The notes beneath the pieces were generated by a model. The model did no database searches, was not told where the DNA came from, and saw only the letters and a program-made list of their open reading frames with translations. Both the position numbers and the translations under genes were made by a program. DNA of 64,000 nucleotides. Source: Narcine bancroftii (Eukaryota). The stretch lies in contig NC_091474.1 in assembly GCF_036971445.1 (NCBI RefSeq), positions 209,064,001-209,128,000 on the forward strand, read 5' to 3'. Of this stretch, positions 16,227 through 58,714 are shown one piece after another; position 1 is the first letter of the stretch; each line of letters begins with the position of its first letter.

Positions 16227-18677
16227 TGCTGGAACTCTGGAGGAACACAATGTGAAAGACCCTGAGTAGGTCAGGCCAAAGGGGTCCAGGCTCGAAACAT
16301 TGGTTACCCTTTACGATCTCGAGATGCTGTGTGACCTGCTGAGTTTCTCCAGCACTTTTGGGTATTGCAAGGCAATAAATAGTTGAAACAGTCAGAAACC
16401 CTTTAACGGGAAACAGGCTGCTGCCCTTAGAAATGACAATCTATTTTCTTCCATGGACGCTGTTTGACATGCTGAGTTCCTTCAGCATTTTGTGTTTCTT
16501 GGACTTTAACACAACTAGTTAAGGTGAAGAATCAATTTGGTAGAGCCTGAAAAAAAAATCAGTAAGCACAGCAGGGAGGAAGATCATGAAACAGCAGTGA
16601 GGATGGAAGTCTAATTTGATAGGTAGGTCTCCCACATGCTCATCACCCTGTCCAGGTTCTGTGTGAGGAAGGAATAGAGCTAAGGATCGGGATGGTAACA
16701 AGCAATTTCCTGGAATTTGGAACACCTAGCACTTTTATAAATGTAAAATCAAGCATGAAACTCATTTTGTGCACGGATCAATCGGATCCTGCCCACTTCC
16801 TGCTAGCGTCCTGCCTGGTGTGACACTGCACCAGGCATGTCGTGCCAAATTTTTCAGTGCCATAAGAACACCGAATCGGTACAGACTGCCATTCCCAGTG
16901 AAATTAAAGAAGGAGGCTGAAACCTGTGACCTTTGCTAGAGTTAATTTAAGAACGGTTTATCGCTCTCTTTTGATTAAAAAAAGACTCTGCTGACATCAG
17001 ATCACATGACCAGGCAGCTTCAGAACTCTCCGCATGCTGCTCTAATATCCTCAAGTCCACCAAATGAGTTATGTGCGGCTGCAAATGCTTTCTCCGCTAT
17101 TTAAGCTGCTGAAATGCTCTTGTTACAGGACTCTCCGGGTGTCACTGGACTCATTGCAATGGCAATGATCAGCAACTGTTTGGGAACCTTGGACAAGGAT
17201 TAAAAGGCCTGCCTGTTTGTGAAGAGCCAACTTCTCATGTTTTTTTTTGCACTACTGATAAGTAGAAGTTCTGCCTGGCTCACAGGAAAAAGAATCTTGG
17301 GGTTGTATGCGAAGAATGTGCTCTGACAATAAACTGAACTTTAAACTTTAATGAAAACTGGCTTATCATAGGCAATGCATTTGTTTCCAAGGCTGTCATC
17401 ATCGTAGCCATATCCTCGTAAATGAATTGCTGTCTCCACGAATCCATAGGATTTTTCTGAATAAACCACAACAGATCTTTGCCACCTTCTAAAAGATTAG
17501 AAGTGCTGAAGGACCTTTTTTTTGTGCTGTAATGTTCTATGGTTCTTACTGGGATCATTATTTGTCAAGAATTGATTTGACCTGCATTGATTTCAATAAA
17601 AAAGAGGAGCTATTTCACACAGTGAGGTTTATCAGCACTGCTGGATTCACAAGAGTGCAGGTAGATAGAGACTGAACTGATGTGCCTGTCGGACTTTCCT
17701 TTAATAGGCAGGAAAGGCTTCCCCAGATTTTCCTCACTGTCAGCGCCATACTTCCTCTTAGAGTCCATGTGAGAAAATGAACTGCAAGATATTTGCACTG
17801 GTCAGAGGAATGGTTCCTGGGAGACCAGGTCACCTGCTACCTTTCTGGTTTCTCACACCATGTTGTTCTGCCTCTATAGGGAGAGAACGCTACTACGACA
17901 TGAATCACACATCGGTGTGAATCAGTGCACCTTTATCAGTACTTTATTGGAGTCACTAGTTATGTGGGAAGCCAGTCCTGCTGATAAATCTCACAACACT
18001 GGAATCCTTGCTCTCTTAATCCTGACATCCTAGTGCCTGCACCAGTCTGGATGTGCCCGCAACAGCATCTACAGTGACTTCATAATTGAACATGCAATCT
18101 GGCCATCTAGAGGTCGCAAGGAGCAGAAGAAAATGAAGAGTGTAGTTCTTTTCCTGAGAACCTGCAGGGATAACAGGTTCAGAGTTGGGGGGGGGGGGGG
18201 GGGAAGGGGGGGGGTTGGCGCACAGTGTGGCTGACCCTATTGAAAACCAATAACCTCATCTTCCAGCAGAGTGGAGAGGAAAGATGGTGATTACAAAGGC
18301 ATTTGGGGTGTACCTTGCAATGAGCTGTGTGGTCAATTATTCAGGCAAAGTGGCCTTGTCCTTGGTGCAGTCAAAAAAAACATGATTGCCCAACCTCTAG
18401 AAGCCCTTGTGATACGTTATAATTTCTCAAGTCCACGTCTGCAGGTCAATATATACATTCCAGGTACAAACAAAAATCTCTTAAGTACTGAACTGTAGAA
18501 TCTCTGTTTCTTGCTGAACAGTACTCAGTGAAAGGAAAACTGCCCCTCTACCATCAACTTTACTAAGATAAATTCCTCCTTTCAGGTCAGAATTCTGTTC
18601 CAAATTTTCACCTCTTGGACATCAATGTTTTCCAGTATCCACTGCAGCCAAAACAGCTAAGAATAATTGAAAGACTG

Positions 18678-18908
18678 TGTAGAGCACGTCGAAAGAATCA
18701 AAGACTTGTTGATCCAAACCAAGGCTTTTATTAACTAGAAGACTGGAGCGCATCACATGTAGGTCGACCAGTCCAGAATGATCTGGTCTGGCAAGGAGTA
18801 ATCCTTTAAGACCTGCCAGTAGGCGTGGCTACACTCTCAACCAATCACAATCATGCTATATTACAATCTATGCATATACACATTGGTGATAGAATCTGTA
18901 CTATCACA
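18678..18908 (-). repeat. 3' LTR (231 bp)
   Basis: TGTAGAGCACGTC...CTATCACA; direct repeat of 23309-23534. Confidence 0.97.
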
Positions 18909-18922
18909 TTCACCCCTTCTTT
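18909..18922 (-). other. Polypurine tract of the Gypsy element
   Basis: Minus strand reads AAAGAAGGGGTGAA immediately before the 3' LTR. Confidence 0.85.
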
Positions 18923-19229
18923 GAGAACTGACCCCGGGGTGGATGGAGGGCTGTTAAAAAAAAGAAAGAAAGGGCTGTAAGAAAGAAGGAGAAATAGAAA
19001 GAAAGGCTAGGGGCTGTACCGGTCAGGGGGCCTGACCATCTGGCGTGACCGCCGTGGTGCTGGGATGGGGTCGCTGGAGTCATGTCGCCGTCAGGCTCGT
19101 CGGGTGCGGCCACTGCTTCACTCAATTCCCCAACAGCGTTGTCGACAGTCTGGCCTCAGTTGGTGGGGTGATGCTGGTCCCTCTGTTCGAGCACATGACC
19201 TGGGGGAGAAGGATTTGGGGGAGGTTGGG

Positions 19230-20110
19230 TTGGAAGCACTGCTGGGCCTGATCCGGCTTGGGCTAGGTCCCTTACCGAGACTGTGTTCTCCCACCCGTCC
19301 GGGTACTCAGTGTAGGCATAATGCGGGTTCACATGGAGCAGAGTCACTCGGTCAACCAAGGGGTCATTCTTTGAGTACCAGACGTGGCATCGCAGGTGGA
19401 CCGGCCCGGGAACCATGAGCCATGCCGGTATGGTTGTTCCCAATTTGCATTTCCTCGGGAAAGAGAACATTCTTTCATTGGGGTGGCATTGGTCGCGGTG
19501 CATAGGAGGGAGCGGATGGAGTGTAGTGCACAAGTGAGCATATCCTGCCAGTGAGAGGTGGGAAGACCTTTGGACTGGAGAGCAAGCATAACCACGTTCC
19601 AGATGGTGGCATTCTTTCGACATGCCCATTACCGCGTGGGTTATAGCTGGTGGTCCTGTTTGAAGTAATACCACGCTCCAGAAGGTACTGCCGCAGCTCC
19701 GCGCTCATAAACGAGGACCCCCTGTCACTGTGGAAGTAACTGGGGTAACCGAAGATGGCGAAGATGCTGTGCAGGGCCTCTATGACTGAGGAGGCAGTCA
19801 TGTCCGAGCAGGGCACAGCGAAAGGGAAGCGGGAGTACTCATTGATGACCGTAAGGATGTAGGTATTATGGTTGGTTGACAGTAAGGGTCCCTTGAAGTC
19901 CACGCTAAGACGCTCAAAGGGGCGGGTAGCTTTGATGATGTGGGTGTTCTCTAGATGAAAGAAGTGGGGATTGCACTCAGCGCACACCGGGCAGGCTCGG
20001 GTCATGGAGTGAATCTCCTCGACCGTGTAGGACAGGTTGCGAGCTTTGACAAAGTGTGCAAACCTAGTGACCCCTGGATGACAGAGTTCCTCGTGGAGTC
20101 TCTGCAGCCT
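19230..20110 (-). pseudogene. Gypsy integrase (HHCC zinc finger + DDE core + C-terminal domain), frameshifted
   Basis: HEELCHPG...CPVCAEC; RPFERLSVDFKGPL; HSDRGSSF; YNPRGNGHVER; downstream KNDPLVDRVTLLHVNPHYAY...TVSVRDLA in another frame. Confidence 0.93.
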
Positions 20111-20139
20111 GTGCAGTTGTATGTTAGCGCAAGTCCCCC

Positions 20140-20500
20140 TGGAGAGCGCATCTGGCGGGTCGTTGAGTTTACCAGGCTGATACAGTATGTCATAATTAAA
20201 GGTGGAGAAGTTCGATTCTCCACCTGGTGATTTTGTCATTCTAGATCTTACCTCGCTGGGTATTGCTAAACATGAAGGAGACCGCACGTTGGTCAGTCAG
20301 CAGTGTAAAGTGCCTGCCAGTGAGGTAGTGTCTCCAATGACGTACTGCTTCGACTATGGCCTGGGCCTCCTTCTCGACAGAGGAGTATCGGCTCTCAGGA
20401 CCCTGGAGGGTTCTGGAGAAGAAGGCTACCGGCCGACCGGCCTGGTTCAAAGTGGCTGCCAGTGCAAAGTCGGACGCATCGCTCTCAACTTGGAACGGGA
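20140..20500 (-). pseudogene. Gypsy RNase H domain
   Basis: ESDASDFALAATLNQAGRPVAFFSRTL...YSSVEKEAQAIVEAVRHWRHYL.GRHFTLLTDQ...YQPGKLNDPPDALSR. Confidence 0.92.
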
Positions 20501-20559
20501 TGGACTCGTCGATGGCGTGCAGCGTTGCAGCAGTGATGTCCGATTTGATGCGTTCGAAG

Positions 20560-21350
20560 GCCGCTCTGGCTTCGGTTGACAGGGGGAAGAAGGTGGTCTT
20601 GATGAGTGGCCGTGCCTTGTCAGCATAGTGTGGAACCCATTGGGCATAGTAAGAGAAAAAACCCAGGCAGCATTTGAGTGCCTTCTGGGTGTGTGGGGGG
20701 TGTGGGGGGGAGGGTGCAAGTCCATGAGGGGATGCATGCGGTCAGGGCCTGGCATTAACACCCCGTTCTCCACCACGCAACTTAGAATTGCGAGCCAAGT
20801 GGTCCGGAAGACACACTTGTCAAAATTGTAGGTCAAGTTCAGCTGAATTGCAGTGTGAAAAAAATTCTCGAGGTTGGCATCATGATCCTCCGTGTCATGG
20901 CCACAGATGGTGACATTGTCCAGATACGGGAAAGTAGCTGTTAGCCTGTTCTGGTCCACCATCCGGTCCATTTCCCGCTGGAAGACTGCGATGCCATTTG
21001 TGATCCCAAAGGGTATCCTGTGTAATTGATACAGCTGCCCATTTGCTTCGAAGGCTGTGAGATGTCGGTCTTCTCGGCGGATCGGGAGCTGGTGATAGGC
21101 CGAATGTAAGTCAATGGTGGAGAACACACGGTATTGGTGGATCTGATTCACCACATCCGTGATCCGTGGAGGGGGTATGCATCCCGAAGCGTGAAGCAGT
21201 TGATTGTCTGGCTGTAGTCAACCACCATCCTCGGCTTCTCCCCGTTTTTAACAACCACCACCTGGGCCCTCCAGGGACTCAAGCTAGGTTCGATAATGCC
21301 CTCGTCCAGCAGTCTACGCACCTCGCTTGTGATGAATTTCCTGTCTTCTT
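20560..21350 (-). pseudogene. Gypsy reverse transcriptase, frameshifted
   Basis: FSTIDLHSAYHQLPI...TAFEA...RIPFGITNG..VFQREMD...FPYLDNVTICG...NFDKCVF. Confidence 0.95.
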
Positions 21351-21539
21351 AACTATATTGCTGGCTTTTGATGGCCACAGGGTTCCAGCCAGGGTGAGGT
21401 TTGCAAAGAGCGTTGGCGGAGCAACCCGGAGGGTGGAGAGGTTACAGGTGAGGTGTGTGGACGGGTGGCTCGGGCTACCGTGGCAGGAGGCTTCCGGGGT
21501 GGAGCAGTTACAGACAGAGAGTGGAGAGTGAGGCACCCC

Positions 21540-21870
21540 CAAGTGCAGGGAAATGGTTTGGAACTGGCACTGAAAATTCAGTCCCAGCAATAAAGGGGTG
21601 CACAGTTGGGGAAGGACTAATAGTTTGAAGTCTATGAACGTGATACCCTGGATTTTGAGGGTCACCACACAATACCCCTTTACCCCAGTCGAGTGTGATC
21701 TGGTCGCCAATGAAATCCTCTGGGCAGTGGGGAGAATAGCCAGTCCACAATGGTGGGCCAGGTCTGCGCGGATAAAACTGTGTCAGATAAGCAATTGGTA
21801 CGATGTCCATGCACTTTAATCAGTTCCATTGCTTTTGTGAGGGGATGGGGGCAGTCCTGGTCTAGGGTTA
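21540..21870 (-). pseudogene. Gypsy aspartic protease, disrupted
   Basis: IKVHGHRTNCLSDT (degenerate D-T/S-G site) and ...FKLLVLPQLCTPLLLGLNFQ (the LG.DF motif). Confidence 0.8.
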
Positions 21871-22499
21871 CTGATGTAGTGACTTGTAATGGGGGCAGTG
21901 AAGTCTTACGTGATGACGTCACGCAACGTGTGCGTGGTGATGTCACACAAACAGTTGGGCCGGTGCAGTCAGCGTCGAGGAGTTGGTGCTGCTGCCTGCA
22001 GCCTGCTGGGGGAGCCGGCCAGCTAACGGCAAGTGCTGAGGGTCGCTGCTTGCTGTCGGCGGTGGGGCAGTCAGTCGGGTGGTTGTCAGCGGTCACGATA
22101 GTGGGTACCAGGTTGGCAGTGTCGGTCGTGGTGGTGTGTCCCTGGTCGGCAGTGTCGGTAGCGGCATTGGGTACTGGGTCTGTAGCGTCGGTCGCGACAG
22201 CGGGTACCTGGTTGGCTGCCTCGGTGGTGGCGAGTTCTCGGTCAGCAGCGTCGGTATCGGCGATGGGTGTGACCTGTCCTTGGTCGGCTGCAGCGGTGGG
22301 TCCCTGGTTGGCATGTCAGTAGTGGTGGCGGCGGGCTCAGCGGTGATGGCGGTGGGCTCAGCGGTGATGGCGGCAGTGGCAGCGGCTGTTGAAGTCAGAG
22401 CTGGGGCCTGGTCGGACATTGCTTCTTGAGGGCGGGTGAAGCAGGCCAACGTCATTGCGGCGAGGGTGGGTTGTACCTTCCGTGCTTGGCACCTGCCCC

Positions 22500-23280
22500 G
22501 GGATGTCAGACGCTGCCGCGTGGTGGAGCCCTCGCTCTCATTGGATGAGAGCTCTGAGTAAGAAATGTTTGAATGGGAGGTTGGCGGTTGGGCTTCACAC
22601 GAGGCACTGTGTTTGACAGACTACAGCAAAGTGGCCGTTTTTAAGGCACTTCTGGCACCTGGCTTTTCTCGCCAGGCACTGGGACCTGCTGTGCTTGTCC
22701 CTCCTGCAGAAATAACCCTTTGGGGTCGCATCAGGCAGCGAAGCGGCAACTGACAGGCCGTCGGTGTGCTGGAGGTAGTAGGGTTGAGGGAGGGCATCCT
22801 ACTCACATCAGAGCATGGGGTCCAGTCCTGAGAGTACACGTCCATACTTAAGACCGCGTCCTCCATTGTCTCTGCGATCCGGATCACGTCTTCTAGGTTT
22901 TCTTCCCCGTGCTCTAGCAGATGCTGCCTATTCTCATTCGATCGGACCCCAGCCAAGTAGGCATCCCGAATGAGATCGTCTGTGGTCTCCGCATCAGTTC
23001 TGTCTGTGCAGGCACAGTCCCTGCCCATTGCCTTTAGTGCTTGAATATAAGCTCTATAGGACTCACCGGGCTGTTGCCTTCTTGTCGTTAGTTTGTACCG
23101 AGCGTAGACCTCTTGGGGACACCATAGTCATCAATATTAGTAGTCGATGGCTGTCCTCTATCACGGCAGTGTCAGAGAGTTGTATGTTTTGAAGCACCTC
23201 ACCCAGTGCTTAAAGTCATTCGAGGCTGTAGCCGACTGTGGGTCGATGTTGAGGCGTTCCAGCCGTAGTGTACGCTCCAA
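22500..23280 (-). pseudogene. Gypsy gag, disrupted
   Basis: Begins (TTG)ERTLRLERLNIDPQSATASNDFKHW. Continues RYKLTTRRQQPGESYRAYIQALKAMGRDCAC...DLIRDAYLAGVRSNENRQHLLE, with a decayed zinc-knuckle region near 22620-22720. Confidence 0.8.
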
Positions 23281-23308
23281 CCCTTTAAAACTTTCTAGTT
23301 AATAAAAT

Positions 23309-23534
23309 TGTAGAGCACGTCGAAAGAATCAAAGGCTTGTTGATCCAAACCAAGGCTTTTATTAACTAGAAGACTGGAGCGTATCACATGTAGGTCGACT
23401 AGTCCAGAATGATCTGGTCTGGCAAGGAGCAACCCTTTAAGACTTGCCAGTAGGTGTGGCTACGCTCTCAGCCAATCACAATCACCCTACACTACAATTT
23501 ATGCATATACACATTGGTGATAGAATCTATCACA
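23309..23534 (-). repeat. 5' LTR (226 bp)
   Basis: By hand count it differs from the 3' LTR by ~14 substitutions and one 5-bp indel. Confidence 0.97.
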
Positions 23535-23719
23535 GACTGAAACTCATTTGGTAGAGAGGATAATGTTTTCAGGCACTCAATTTCACTGGCATTCACTGAT
23601 TGAAAAGTCCCTTTTGAAGCCCCAGTTGAGGTTATTTTTAAGCCATTCATCAATTTGAGTGTTTCAATCGATTCAGTGGGTGTAGAAGCATAGGTTCACT
23701 CAATTCTCAACAGTTCAAC

Positions 23720-24555: not shown

Positions 24556-25669
24556 TCTGCTTCTATGCCTTATGGACTTACATATGTGGTGGAGAAACTC
24601 AGCAGGTCACATAGGAAGTAAAAGATAATAATTTGGTTACTTTTTCAGATTTCTATTCCTGATGAGGGGTTCAGACTGGAAATGTTGATTACCCTTCACT
24701 TCCTATGCATGCTGCTTAGCCTGAGTTTCTCTTGACCTTAGCATTTGCAGAATTTCTTGTTTAACTGATCGCTGTGGAATCATGTTTCCCTGCACTCTAT
24801 TTCAATAACTTCCATAAGGAGGTTGGCTCTAAGAGAAGGGGTACAATGGAATAAATTTTCCACGAAGGAAACCATTTTCAGGGCTGTTCATGGTAACTAA
24901 TGCAAGCAGGCATGTAGGGGAGTCATGCATTTGGACTCATGGTCATGCGCATTGGTCTCCAGAGCAACATGGCATCAGGTGAGGTGATAATCTCCAAGAG
25001 GAAGCATCACTCCATTCAGGATTAAGAGTGACTTTATTTACATGGCACGTACATTAGTAGTCTTTTCAGATGAGGCGTAGCAGGGTTTATGACAGTTCCT
25101 GTCACTGCCACACCTGTATTGACTTAAATCTGGACAATGAGGAATGCTAATTACTTGATGATAAAGAGAATGCATTTCTGCAGTCCTGGTGTATGACAGT
25201 TACATAAATCATCAATATAAAGTCACGTCTTTAAATACCCTGGTTACCCTTACAAATGCAACCTTATAAATAGGTCTAGAGGTTGTCGCACTTTGTCACA
25301 TTGTCACTTGCATGGATCAATTTGGAAGTACCATGGCTTCCAGAGAGTTATGGATTCCTGGCTTAGAACTATCTTCTACAAGAGCATGGAGTGCTTCTTA
25401 CTTCCTGCCTTCCTGACAACATCCTCATCATCTTATTCTGCACCTTGATCAAATTGGTCACAAAAGCATTCAAGTTGTGGTTCTCCAAGCAATAATGATA
25501 GGTAGTCATCCCCTTGCCCTAGATTCCTTGTGCTACTATCACAGTTATTCTTTGATGCAACTCCCTTTAACTTGTTGATCTCACATAACATCTGGGTGCC
25601 CATCTGTTGTTGGTTGAAGCAACATTGCAATGATCTACATTGATATGTTTAAATTTTTTACATTAAAAA

Positions 25670-27439: not shown

Positions 27440-27750
27440 GTCTTGCGGCTGTGAAGTCAGACATTCTCCTATCAAGAGAGCTCTCTTTCACTGCCCTCTA
27501 TCCTCTTGCCCCTATCACTTCTCAGCTTCTCTTATACCCTCCAACCTGTATCCACCTATCACCTGTTAGCCTGTGCTGCCCCTCCCACACACCTCCACTT
27601 TTATTCAGGCACCTGACTGATGTTCAGCACTCCTGAGGAATGGGTCAGGCCTGAAACCTTTACTGCCTTTTACTTCCTATGAATGCTAAGTGGCCCGCTG
27701 AGTTTCTCCAGCACTTTCGTATTCTGTCTAGACCCTCAGTATCTGCAGAT
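27440..27750 (+). mobile_element. Penelope-like terminal repeat fragment
   Basis: Pyrimidine-rich tract, CTGAGGA...GAAAC and GCTGAGTTTCTCCAGCA; matches the ends of the PLEs at 29460 and 52030. Confidence 0.65.
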
Positions 27751-29459: not shown

Positions 29460-29910
29460 TGCAATACACAACCGTGTTGGAGAAACTAGGCAGGCTATGC
29501 AGCATCTATAGTAACCAACGTTTCGGGCCTGATCCCTTTGTCAGGTATTTAAAAAAAACAGGCAGGCACCTGAATGAAAAGGTTGGCGGTGGGTGGGGGG
29601 GAGGGAGGGGGTTGCGGGGAAGGAGAGGGGTTGTGGGGAAGGGGAAGACTAACAGATAAGAGATCATAGATGGATACAGGTGGGAGGGTAGAAAATTTTT
29701 AAAAAGCTGAGATGTTAGGGGGAAGAGGTAGCTCTCTGATAGAAAGAAGGGAAGAGTGGGGTGTTGAAGGAAGCGGGCAGAGAAAGAAACAGGAGGGAGA
29801 GTTAATGGAATTGAAGATGTCACTGTTAATGCCGCAAGGTTGGAGAGTGCCCAGATGGAATATAAGGTGTGGTTCCTACAATTTGCAGGTGGCCTTAATT
29901 TGGCAGTGTA
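29460..29910 (-). mobile_element. Penelope-like element 3' end (GIY-YIG tail + terminal repeat)
   Basis: Minus strand encodes EPHLIFHLGTLQPCGINSDIFN; a G-rich tract and CCCGAAACGTT follow. Confidence 0.75.
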
Positions 29911-56406: not shown

Positions 56407-58714
56407 TACGGAGGGGTATGTCCACGTCTGCTGCAGGCTCGTTGGTGACTGACAAGTCCGATGCGGGACAGGCAGGCACGGTTGCAGCGGTTGCAAGGGA
56501 AAATTGGTGGGTTGGAGTTGGGTGTTGGGTTTTTCCTCCTTTGTCTTTTGTCAGTGAGGTGGGCTCTGCGGTCTTCTTCAAAGGAGGTTGCTGCCCGCCG
56601 AACTGTGAGGCGCCAAGATGCACGGTTGGAGGCGAGATCAGCTCACTGGCGGTGGTCAATGTGGCAGGGACCAAGAGATTTCTTTAAGCAGTCCTTGTAC
56701 CTCTTCTTTGGTGCACTTCTGTCTCGGTGGCCAGTGGAGAGCTCGCCATAGAACACAATCTTGGGAAGGCGATGGTCCTCCATTCTGGAGACGTGACCCA
56801 CCCAGCGCAGTTGGGTCTTCAGCAGCATGGATTCGATGCTTGCGGACTCTGCCATCTCGAGTACTTTGATGTTGGTGATGAAGACATTCCAATGAATGTT
56901 GAGGATGGAGCGGAGACAGCGCTGATGGAAGCGTTCTAGGAGCCGTAGGTGATGCCGGTAGAGGACCCATGATTCGGAGCCGAACGGGAGCGTGGGTTTG
57001 ACAACGGCTCTGTACACGCTGATCTTTGTGTGTTTCTTCAGGTGGTTGTTTTTCCAGACTCTTTTGTGTAGTCTTCCAAAGGCGCTATTTGCCTTGGCGA
57101 GTCTGTTGTCTATCTCGTTGTCGATCCTTGCATCAGATGAAATGGTGCAGCCGAGGTAGGTAAACTGGTTGACCGTTTTGAGTTTTGTGTGCCCGATGGA
57201 GATGTGGGGGGTCTGGTGGTCATGGTGGGGAGCTGGCTGATGGAGGACCTCAGTTTTCTTCAGGCTGATTTCCAGGCCAAACATTTTGGCAGTTTCCGCA
57301 AAACAGGACGTCATGCGCTGGAGAGCTGGCTCTGAATGGGCAACTGAAGCGGCATCGTCTGCAAAGAGTAGTTCACAGACAAGTTGCTCTTGTGCCTTGG
57401 TGTGAGTTTGCAGGCGCCTCAGATTGAAGAGACTGCCATCCGTGTGGTACCGGATGTAAACACCATCTTCATTGTTGAGGTCTTTCATGGCTTGTTTCAG
57501 CATGATGCTGAAGAAGATAGTAAAGAGAGTTGGTGCAAGGACGCAGCCTTGCTTCCCGCCGTTGTCAATGGAGAAGGGTTCGGAGAGCTCATTGCTGTAT
57601 CTGACCCGAACTTGTTGGTTTTCATGCAGTTCGCTCTAGTATTTCCCAAAGCCCTTTCCTGCTCACGGTGTCAAAGGCTTTGGTGAGGTCAACAAAGGTG
57701 ATGTAGAGTCCTTTGTTTTGTTCTCTGCACTTTTCTTGGAGCTGTCTGAGGGCAAAGACCATGTCAATAGTTCCTCTGTTTGCGCGAAAGCCACTCTGTT
57801 ATTCTGGGAGGACATTTTCGGTGACACTAGGTATTAGTCTATTAAGGAGAATCCTAGCGAAGATTTTGCCTGCAATGGAGAGCAGCGTGATTCCCCTGTA
57901 GTTTGAGCAGTCTGATTTCTCGCCTTTGTTTTTGTACAGGGTGATGAAGATGGCATCATGAAGGTCCTGAGGCAGCTTTCCTTGGTCCCAGCAGAGCATG
58001 AAAAACTCATGCAGTTTGGTATGCAGAGCTTTGCAGCCAGCCTTCCAGTCCTCTGGGGGGGATTCCATCCATACCTGCTGCTTTGCCACTTTTCAGTTGT
58101 TCAATTGCCTTATATGTCTCTTCCCGGGTAAGGACCTCATCCAGCTCTAGACTCAAGGGCTGTTGAGGGAGCTGGAGCAGGGCGGATTCTTGGACTGAGC
58201 GGTTGGCACTGAAAAGGGATTGGAAGTGTTCTGACCATCGATTGAGGATGGAGATCTTGTCACTGAGGAGGACTTCGCCATCTGAGCTGCGCAGAGGGCT
58301 TTGGACTTGGGGTGAGGGGCCGTACACCGCCTTTAGTGTCTCATAAAAACCCCTGAAGTCGCCAATGTCGGCACTAAGCTGCATTCGTTTGGCCAGGCTA
58401 GTCCACTACTCATTTTGGATCTCCCGGAGTTTGCACTGAAGATGGCTGCATGCGAGATGGAAGGCTCATTTTTTCTCTGGCCAGGAAGACTTTGCAAGGT
58501 GAGCCTGGTGGGCAGATCGCTTCTTTGCCAGCAGCTCTTGGATTTCCTGGTTGTTTTCGTTAAACCAGTCCTTGTTTTTCCTGGAAGAGAAGCCCAGTAC
58601 CTCTTCAGTGGATTGCAGTATGGCCGTTTTCAGCTGATCCGAGAGGGTTTCAGGAGACATGTCCGTGAGGCAATTTGCATCCTCGAGCTTTCCTTGGAGG
58701 TTTGCCTGGAAGTT
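56407..58714 (-). pseudogene. RTE ORF (RT and C-terminal domain; endonuclease missing), with stops and frameshifts
   Basis: GKAAGMDGIP; SDCSNYRGITLLSIAGKIFARILLNRL; FVDLTKAFDTVSR; KQGCVLAPTLF; ELLFADDAA; FTYLGC; QLRWVGHVSRMEDHRLPK; C-terminal FPCNRCNRACLSRIGLVSHQRAC. Confidence 0.93.

Follow-up and report, generated by a model that had tools for sequence, protein, structure and literature searches.

How reverse transcription could be started in a Ty3/Gypsy retrotransposon that carries no tRNA primer-binding site is the question raised by an element lying within a 64,000-nt stretch of the Narcine bancroftii genome, referred to here as the window. A first-pass annotation of the window had proposed that the element primes itself, its primer-binding site being complementary to part of its own LTR. 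The host genome extends over 3.3 Gb, and the nearest named proteins to those of the element come from rays and catsharks. The order PR-RT-RH-IN, the TG...CA LTRs, the polypurine tract and the short target duplication are those of Ty3/Gypsy elements, and the integrase does not precede the reverse transcriptase as it does in the Gmr1 group. The window copy is dead: stops and frame breaks are numerous, and the gag start codon is lost. Its parts, all on the minus strand, are as follows.

18678..23534, minus strand: whole Ty3/Gypsy element, dead, 4857 nt, in the order gag-PR-RT-RH-IN and with no chromodomain
23535..23539, minus strand: 5-bp target-site duplication flanking the element, with its partner at 18677-18673
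23309..23534, minus strand: 5' LTR, TG...CA, 226 nt; compared with the 3' LTR it has a 5-nt gap close to its start
23434..23440, minus strand: TATA-like box, 30 nt upstream of the cap site; retained in subfamilies A1, A2 and B, variant in C
23407..23412, minus strand: initiator-like motif; the A at 23410 is the putative cap site, by homology with two processed retrocopies
23357..23410, minus strand: predicted primer, a capped 54-nt 5' RNA fragment (52 nt in family B)
23357..23371, minus strand: LTR arm of the 15-bp duplex, containing the poly(A) hexamer AATAAA at 23363-23358
23353..23356, minus strand: RCCT motif directly after the duplex; predicted cut at about 23357/23356 (+/-2)
23341..23345, minus strand: putative poly(A) addition site and end of R, by homology with L398, L403, L409 and L412; used in the 3' LTR
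23308..23308, minus strand: one-base spacer (A) between LTR end and duplex, from the LTR end and the pairing
23293..23307, minus strand: primer-binding site without TGG, complementary to the LTR arm, from sequence pairing
23271..23279, minus strand: gag-start region, potentially pairing with LTR 23383-23375 as a second helix, for which significance is confined to this subfamily
22600..23280, minus strand: gag, broken; the Gag of the clade is Mag-like
21573..21779, minus strand: aspartyl protease match (Pfam)
20804..21163, minus strand: reverse transcriptase match (Pfam), with YLDN replacing YLDD
20256..20576, minus strand: RNase H match (Pfam)
19637..19927, minus strand: integrase core match (Pfam)
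18909..18920, minus strand: polypurine tract with the two bases separating it from the 3' LTR, from sequence
18678..18908, minus strand: 3' LTR, 231 nt, from LTR comparison

Other repeats occur in and around the element. Tandem repeats of 33 bp and 21 bp occupy the gag-protease spacer (22090-22216 and 22322-22385), short dispersed repeats, probably a SINE, are present in both orientations at 16272-16358, 24579-24713, 27631-27721 and 29460-29514, and a separate reverse transcriptase fragment with an RVT_1 match, probably from a LINE, lies at 56643-57635.

The pairing described in the first-pass annotation is present in the window copy. On the minus strand the 15-mer at 23307-23293 is the exact complement of LTR positions 23371-23357, with a 49-nt loop between them, and the LTR arm includes AATAAA at 23363-23358. 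There is no TGG site of the tRNA type; the 5' LTR ends in CA and is followed by a single A (23308) and then by the 15-mer. The chance of a 15-nt complement at a fixed start, calculated from the base composition of the LTR, is about 7e-7, and the fold z-score is -4.0. The two LTRs are identical in 212 of 231 columns, with 14 substitutions and one 5-nt gap, which agrees with the reported divergence of about 6%. At that divergence 15 identical bases are expected in about 38% of cases, and therefore the identity of the arm in both LTRs, which had been advanced in support of self-priming, is uninformative.

The site is the norm for the family within the Narcine genome. It was found in 30 of 30 copies recovered by a DNA search, but the query itself contained the site, and for this reason copies were re-selected by gag or RT matches. 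This yielded 140 copies (20 of 148 picked for long frames, and 120 of 149), of which 115 were anchorable; among the 25 not used are other families and damaged copies. None of the 115 carries TGG within 7 nt of the LTR, the kind of site which the first-pass annotation had set against self-priming. At the first 11 positions pairing was complete in 84 of the anchored copies and held at 10 positions in a further 19, such that 103 pair at 10 or 11 positions. Moreover, a change in one arm is matched in the other from subfamily to subfamily. At three or four paired positions family B has bases other than those of the window and remains complementary, and the A2, A3 and C variants likewise alter both arms and retain pairing. 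Three copies count against self-priming in that the state of their LTR arm is absent from the primer site (L158, L188 and L253).

Some individual copies are also recorded here. Comparison of L080 with L083, L084 and L088 shows the LTR arm and the primer-binding site altered at the same paired position, while L173, and L144 near its gag fragment, belong to more distant families of the clade with duplexes of their own of 14 bp and 8 bp, respectively. L066 has a duplicated primer-binding site, and family B copies L170, L198, L225, L240, L241 and L265 carry short duplications just after the site. The word depth of the LTR exceeds that of the internal region about 10- to 100-fold (L031 5900-6660, contig sets X1 and X4), which fits an abundance of solo LTRs.

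A host tRNA, tRNA half or snRNA is a highly improbable primer at this site. Among 30 tRNA genes, which represent 11 anticodon types and 30 of 52 search matches, the best match covers 6 nt, whereas a Mag-like family of the Narcine genome used as a control (L148, L149, L153, L154 and L156) matches the 3' end of tRNA-Ser over 14 nt. Host-RNA priming is further opposed by the lack of TGG in the 115 copies, and by the fact that the site follows, family by family, the LTR of the element itself, as a single host RNA could not do; it draws what room it has from a comparison which covered those 30 tRNA genes and no snRNA. Gmr1-like elements of the same genome (L139-L145, L151, L152 and L155), which have integrase before RT, carry a site starting TGGG 5 nt after the LTR, and no primer for this site was identified among the 30 tRNA genes.

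The first-pass annotation had called for covariation between the two arms in related elements. Relatives were collected from 79 metagenome and 7 MAG loci, 47 of which had enough sequence before gag, and together with two Narcine loci these formed 29 clusters, 28 of them metagenome or MAG and one Narcine. The first member of 24 of the 29 clusters has a perfect duplex of 11-18 bp, against a mean of about 7 in shuffles, and an 11-bp duplex is absent from the first member of the other five. Position-wise counts were made on 27 anchored rows, consisting of the best member of each cluster and both members of the Narcine cluster, with three clusters dropped. Positions 1-11 are paired in 26-27 of the 27 rows, and at positions 4-9 and 11 shuffled partners would pair in only 11-15 rows. 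Pairing then declines over positions 12-17 (25, 24, 22, 18, 15 and 10 rows, where shuffled partners would give 8-13), and G-U pairs are absent from positions 1-14 in every row.

The register of the duplex is also fixed. The spacer is one base, the arm is followed by RCCT (R in 25, C in 23, C in 24 and T in 22 of the 27 rows), and the duplex starts at +1 in 14 of the 18 loci where the LTR end is fixed by a second LTR, the four exceptions being two damaged copies and two loci with a mis-called LTR end. A G occupies arm position 10 in 24 of the 27 rows, and in the invertebrate relatives this G, together with their short LTRs, hints at an 11-nt primer resembling that of Tf1. Named proteins of the clade come from insects, spiders, a nematode, a coral and cartilaginous fishes, and in these cases the clade is known by protein and not by LTR. 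The contigs L130-L136, filed as bacterial MAGs, hold these animal retrotransposons, most likely as host contamination, and among viral contigs 51 pattern matches included no relative.

The same counts bear on the proposal that the hairpin serves only to hide the 5' poly(A) signal and the gag start, while another RNA primes. The hexamer lies within the arm in 16 of the 27 rows, the poly(A) signal is used where the primer site is absent, and in the window subfamily a second helix covers the gag start. However, the duplex is kept in 11 of the 27 rows with no hexamer in the arm, a plain hairpin requires neither the +1 register nor the exclusion of G-U pairs, and the element offers no alternative primer site. 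Nor is the second helix widespread: it is significant against shuffles in the window/A1 subfamily (p 0.01-0.035) and in two relatives and not in most others. Hiding as the sole function is thus improbable. Occlusion of the poly(A) signal, suggested in the first-pass annotation, is a plausible second role in the Narcine element because retrocopies show that the signal is used, but it does not account for the pairing across the clade, since the hexamer falls within the arm in only those 16 rows.

The ends of the RNA are deduced here from integrated genomic copies. In four subfamilies a TATA-like box and an initiator-like motif lie about 30 nt apart, with the initiator 51-53 nt before the end of the duplex. 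Runs of A following the hexamer were found at 16 loci, four of them readable as processed retrocopies and the other 12 not interpretable. In these four (L398, L403, L409 and L412), all with target duplications, the poly(A) tail begins 12-16 nt after the duplex end. Two retrocopies, L378 (identical with L403, family A2) and L412 (family B), have their first templated base exactly at the initiator A, preceded by one untemplated G, and carry both a poly(A) tail and target duplications. An untemplated G at the start of a retrocopy is established as a trace of the cap. Read in this way, and transferred to the window by homology, the two copies would put the cap site at 23410, and the tails of the four would put the poly(A) site at about 23345-23341. 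A further search for the extra G gave five matches, one of them the known L378 and none new, leaving the total at two.

A transcript start near 23371, as predicted earlier from the Tf1 model, is therefore replaced by 23410, and the paired 15-mer consequently sits 39 nt inside the RNA. For the Narcine genome, a primer of 11 nt beginning at 23367 was also rejected.

Chimeric copies join the two strands at the site. Five types (L285/L312, L289, L304, L382 and L388) run from the cap site to AAAA and continue, after one base, into minus-strand U5, with their plus-sense part starting no more than 4 nt from the initiator A. A primer joined to its first DNA should have this sequence, and the chimeras may be records of normal priming. 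Against this reading, seven other junction types end elsewhere, spread over about 185 nt, and the cap-site chimeras show 3-10 nt of microhomology (none at L382) and a small hairpin around the initiator. L330 and L331 were examined as additional cap-site ends and dismissed, since a base-level reading puts them near -43.

Deep covariation, fixed register, the lack of a match in 30 tRNA genes and these fossils of primer and cDNA all support the self-priming proposed in the first-pass annotation, and we consider it very likely that elements of the clade prime themselves in some form. For the form itself we favour, as the probable course, action in cis in which a Tf1-like cut frees a capped leader of about 54 nt as primer. 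The transcript, capped at 23410, would fold 23371-23357 onto the site that follows the LTR, and cleavage at about 23357/23356, where the duplex ends, would release the leader with its last 15 nt paired. The cutter would be the element's own RNase H, by analogy with Tf1 (PMC7175516). Minus-strand DNA would then start one base from the LTR end and, after about 49 nt, the first product would jump to the 3' LTR by way of the 12-16 nt of R remaining after the cut. The duplex would also hide the poly(A) signal of the 5' LTR. Finally, the site would be regenerated by plus-strand copying of the retained primer, and we propose that the strict Watson-Crick match arises because of this copying.

Further fossils were sought where the primer site runs on as a copy of the LTR. 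There are 417 such junctions, and none in a reversed control. Seventy were read (L277-L346, the first 30 and 40 further listed) and 69 parsed. Target duplications are present in 17 of the 21 junctions with both ends visible. The inverted copy extends to the LTR start in 57 of the 69, although DNA snap-back could produce such fold-backs in any element with this inverted repeat. In L277 and L304 the primer site follows a 3' LTR, a position where in normal replication it should be templated by the primer end alone. Template jumps, where U5 is joined to element sequence, fall at -11 to +10 of the duplex end in 24 of 32 cases and at the cap site in one. This clustering fits a first DNA product which stops at the duplex end, as it would after a cut; hairpin formation in the new strand could be an alternative source. 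One snap-back junction at this end, shared by about 22 of 64 matches (a hand count), also speaks for a cut there. Truncation counts of 64 at the cut, 17 at the initiator and 21 at a U3 control have no common denominator and are mostly indels or point variants, and for that reason only individual loci are used as evidence.

Aberrant integrated cDNAs of this kind include palindromic LTR units and internally inverted elements, most of the testable ones with 5-bp target duplications, and L330 is a 278-bp tandem array of palindromic LTR units.

The junctions also bear on where the primer molecule would come from. It could act in trans, the substitute for a tRNA being an R-only RNA (cap to poly(A) site, from solo LTRs or early 5' polyadenylation) or the 5' end of a second packaged RNA, trimmed to AAAA. 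Short capped and polyadenylated R-only RNAs have existed, as L378 and L412 demonstrate, and the LTR is far deeper than internal sequence in contigs, as expected with many solo LTRs. The chimeras define the ends of the primer and not its molecule; the L328 jump and the L384 R-U5 fragment reach the cap site, as predicted for an uncut template; and in L318 the arms come from different subfamilies. Weighing against this, the concentration of jumps at the duplex end, with one at the cap site, fits a cut template, and the arms are mostly concordant at subfamily-linked sites, with L318 the only near-arm exception. We regard priming in trans as unlikely.

Less likely still is a primer taken from the far end of the RNA, the U3-R of the 3' LTR, cut just after the poly(A) hexamer. 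Pairing in relatives exceeds the shuffled expectation as far as position 16, most fold-backs extend through U3, and L323 continues for 1220 nt into the internal region. In the Narcine genome, however, positions 12-15 lie within the 5' RNA and therefore no U3 is needed. The five chimera types starting at the cap site argue against U3-R, though not against a second RNA, and 68 of the 69 parsed junctions do not extend far past the LTR start, pointing to plus-strand DNA as the template there. Mutation footprints compared between 5' and 3' primers offered few informative variants, and the haplotypes were mostly concordant.

The absence of a chromodomain, as claimed for the window element, extends to its relatives: none was found in 30 scanned, nor in the precomputed domains of 175 listed relatives, while most controls have one. 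YLDN was tried as a defining feature and abandoned, as the 175 divide into 70 with YLDN, 104 with YLDD and one with neither. In the RT-RH tree the clade (100/100) and the chromodomain-bearing references (100/100) are separate, and the clade also stands apart from the Mag-like and Gmr1-like references. The sister of the clade has support of 58/2, with AU p of 0.51 for Mag and 0.07 for Gmr1. The references did not include Tf1 or fungal and plant chromoviruses, L090 and L118 were left out as too short in this segment, and the large RT-RH tree was made by a quick method. The description of the element as Mag-like consequently holds for Gag and not for RT-RH, which forms a separate clade. A Gag profile built from 85 clade members gives 95 bits against a Mag-like Narcine element and at most 19 bits against nine chromovirus Gags; this is a single reference family, which we take to be Mag-like from features familiar in that lineage. 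With the sister group of RT-RH at this support (AU p 0.51), an origin independent of Tf1/sushi is likely and no more than that.

The Mag lineage (clades A, B and C) resembles the window clade in Gag, in a single long ORF and in lacking a chromodomain. Mag elements have a tRNA primer-binding site, as the tRNA-Ser site of the control family illustrates, and RT-RH does not group the window clade with Mag-like elements with support. Cigr-1 of Ciona is a single-ORF element of about 4.2 kb with a SURL-like Gag. The likeness of the window clade to Cigr-1 and MolGy is by description and not by sequence; the Cigr-1 clade is reported in molluscs and annelids, and the main text of the two reports does not use the terms PBS, primer binding or self (PMC6238403, PMC8556966). 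A motif search in the readable supplements of PMC6238403 found nothing.

Self-priming has been worked out in Tf1 and deduced for its chromovirus kin and for one plant Copia lineage (PMC7175516, PMC6317226). The Tf1 RNA pairs through its first 11 bases, and RNase H cleaves it between bases 11 and 12 (PMC7175516, PMC4600332, 10.1101/2022.12.06.519325). Tf1/Tf2 of S. pombe, Tj1, Tosmo and the Tf1/sushi group, as far as these sources describe them, share with the window clade the lack of a tRNA site and a site complementary to their own 5' LTR. The window clade differs from Tf1/sushi in having neither a chromodomain nor SH3_Tf2-1, in its Mag-like Gag and in its own RT-RH clade. In contrast to Tf1, the paired bases of the window element would lie 39-54 nt from the cap, the predicted primer being 52-54 nt long (from a cap site 51-53 nt before the duplex end, in the Narcine genome only). 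The predicted primer would also overlap the poly(A) signal and leave 12-16 nt of R after the predicted cut, and the predicted folds, with local loop hairpins and an upstream helix (the only part covered by the shuffle test), lack the three-duplex 'pretzel'.

Self-priming has already been proposed outside Tf1/sushi, for the Copia TAR lineage (Houba, Osr-1) and the Tcn1 clade, where an LTR-complementary site is predicted from sequence, as here (PMC6317226). TAR is Copia and Tcn1 a chromovirus, both plant or fungal, whereas the window clade is animal Gypsy. A literature search, which did not extend to subscription papers and Repbase, found no self-priming described for a non-chromovirus animal Gypsy clade. 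What is new here would be a known mechanism in variant form, working like that of Tf1 in elements that group neither with Tf1/sushi nor with Mag. The full picture combines an animal-wide clade (rays, sharks, coral, nematode, spiders and insects) with tRNA-free priming independent of Tf1/sushi, a capped leader cut at a conserved AAA/RCCT site inside R, one duplex both making the primer and silencing the 5' poly(A) signal, and hundreds of integrated copying accidents that record each step; we judge the case for and against this entire combination to be evenly balanced.

The model yields exact RNA ends that are open to testing, and aberrant insertions can map the cap site, the poly(A) site and the primer without RNA data. 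tRNA fragments can silence elements at the primer site, and a clade priming in the manner proposed would, we infer, escape such silencing. A common animal clade with a long capped primer would also bear on whether hairpin or tRNA priming came first, a question raised in PMC3601003. Two further loci of the Narcine genome relate to the chromoviruses themselves. The RT-RH of L147 falls with chromoviruses, and L137 is a degraded sushi-like chromovirus nested with other retroelement fragments.
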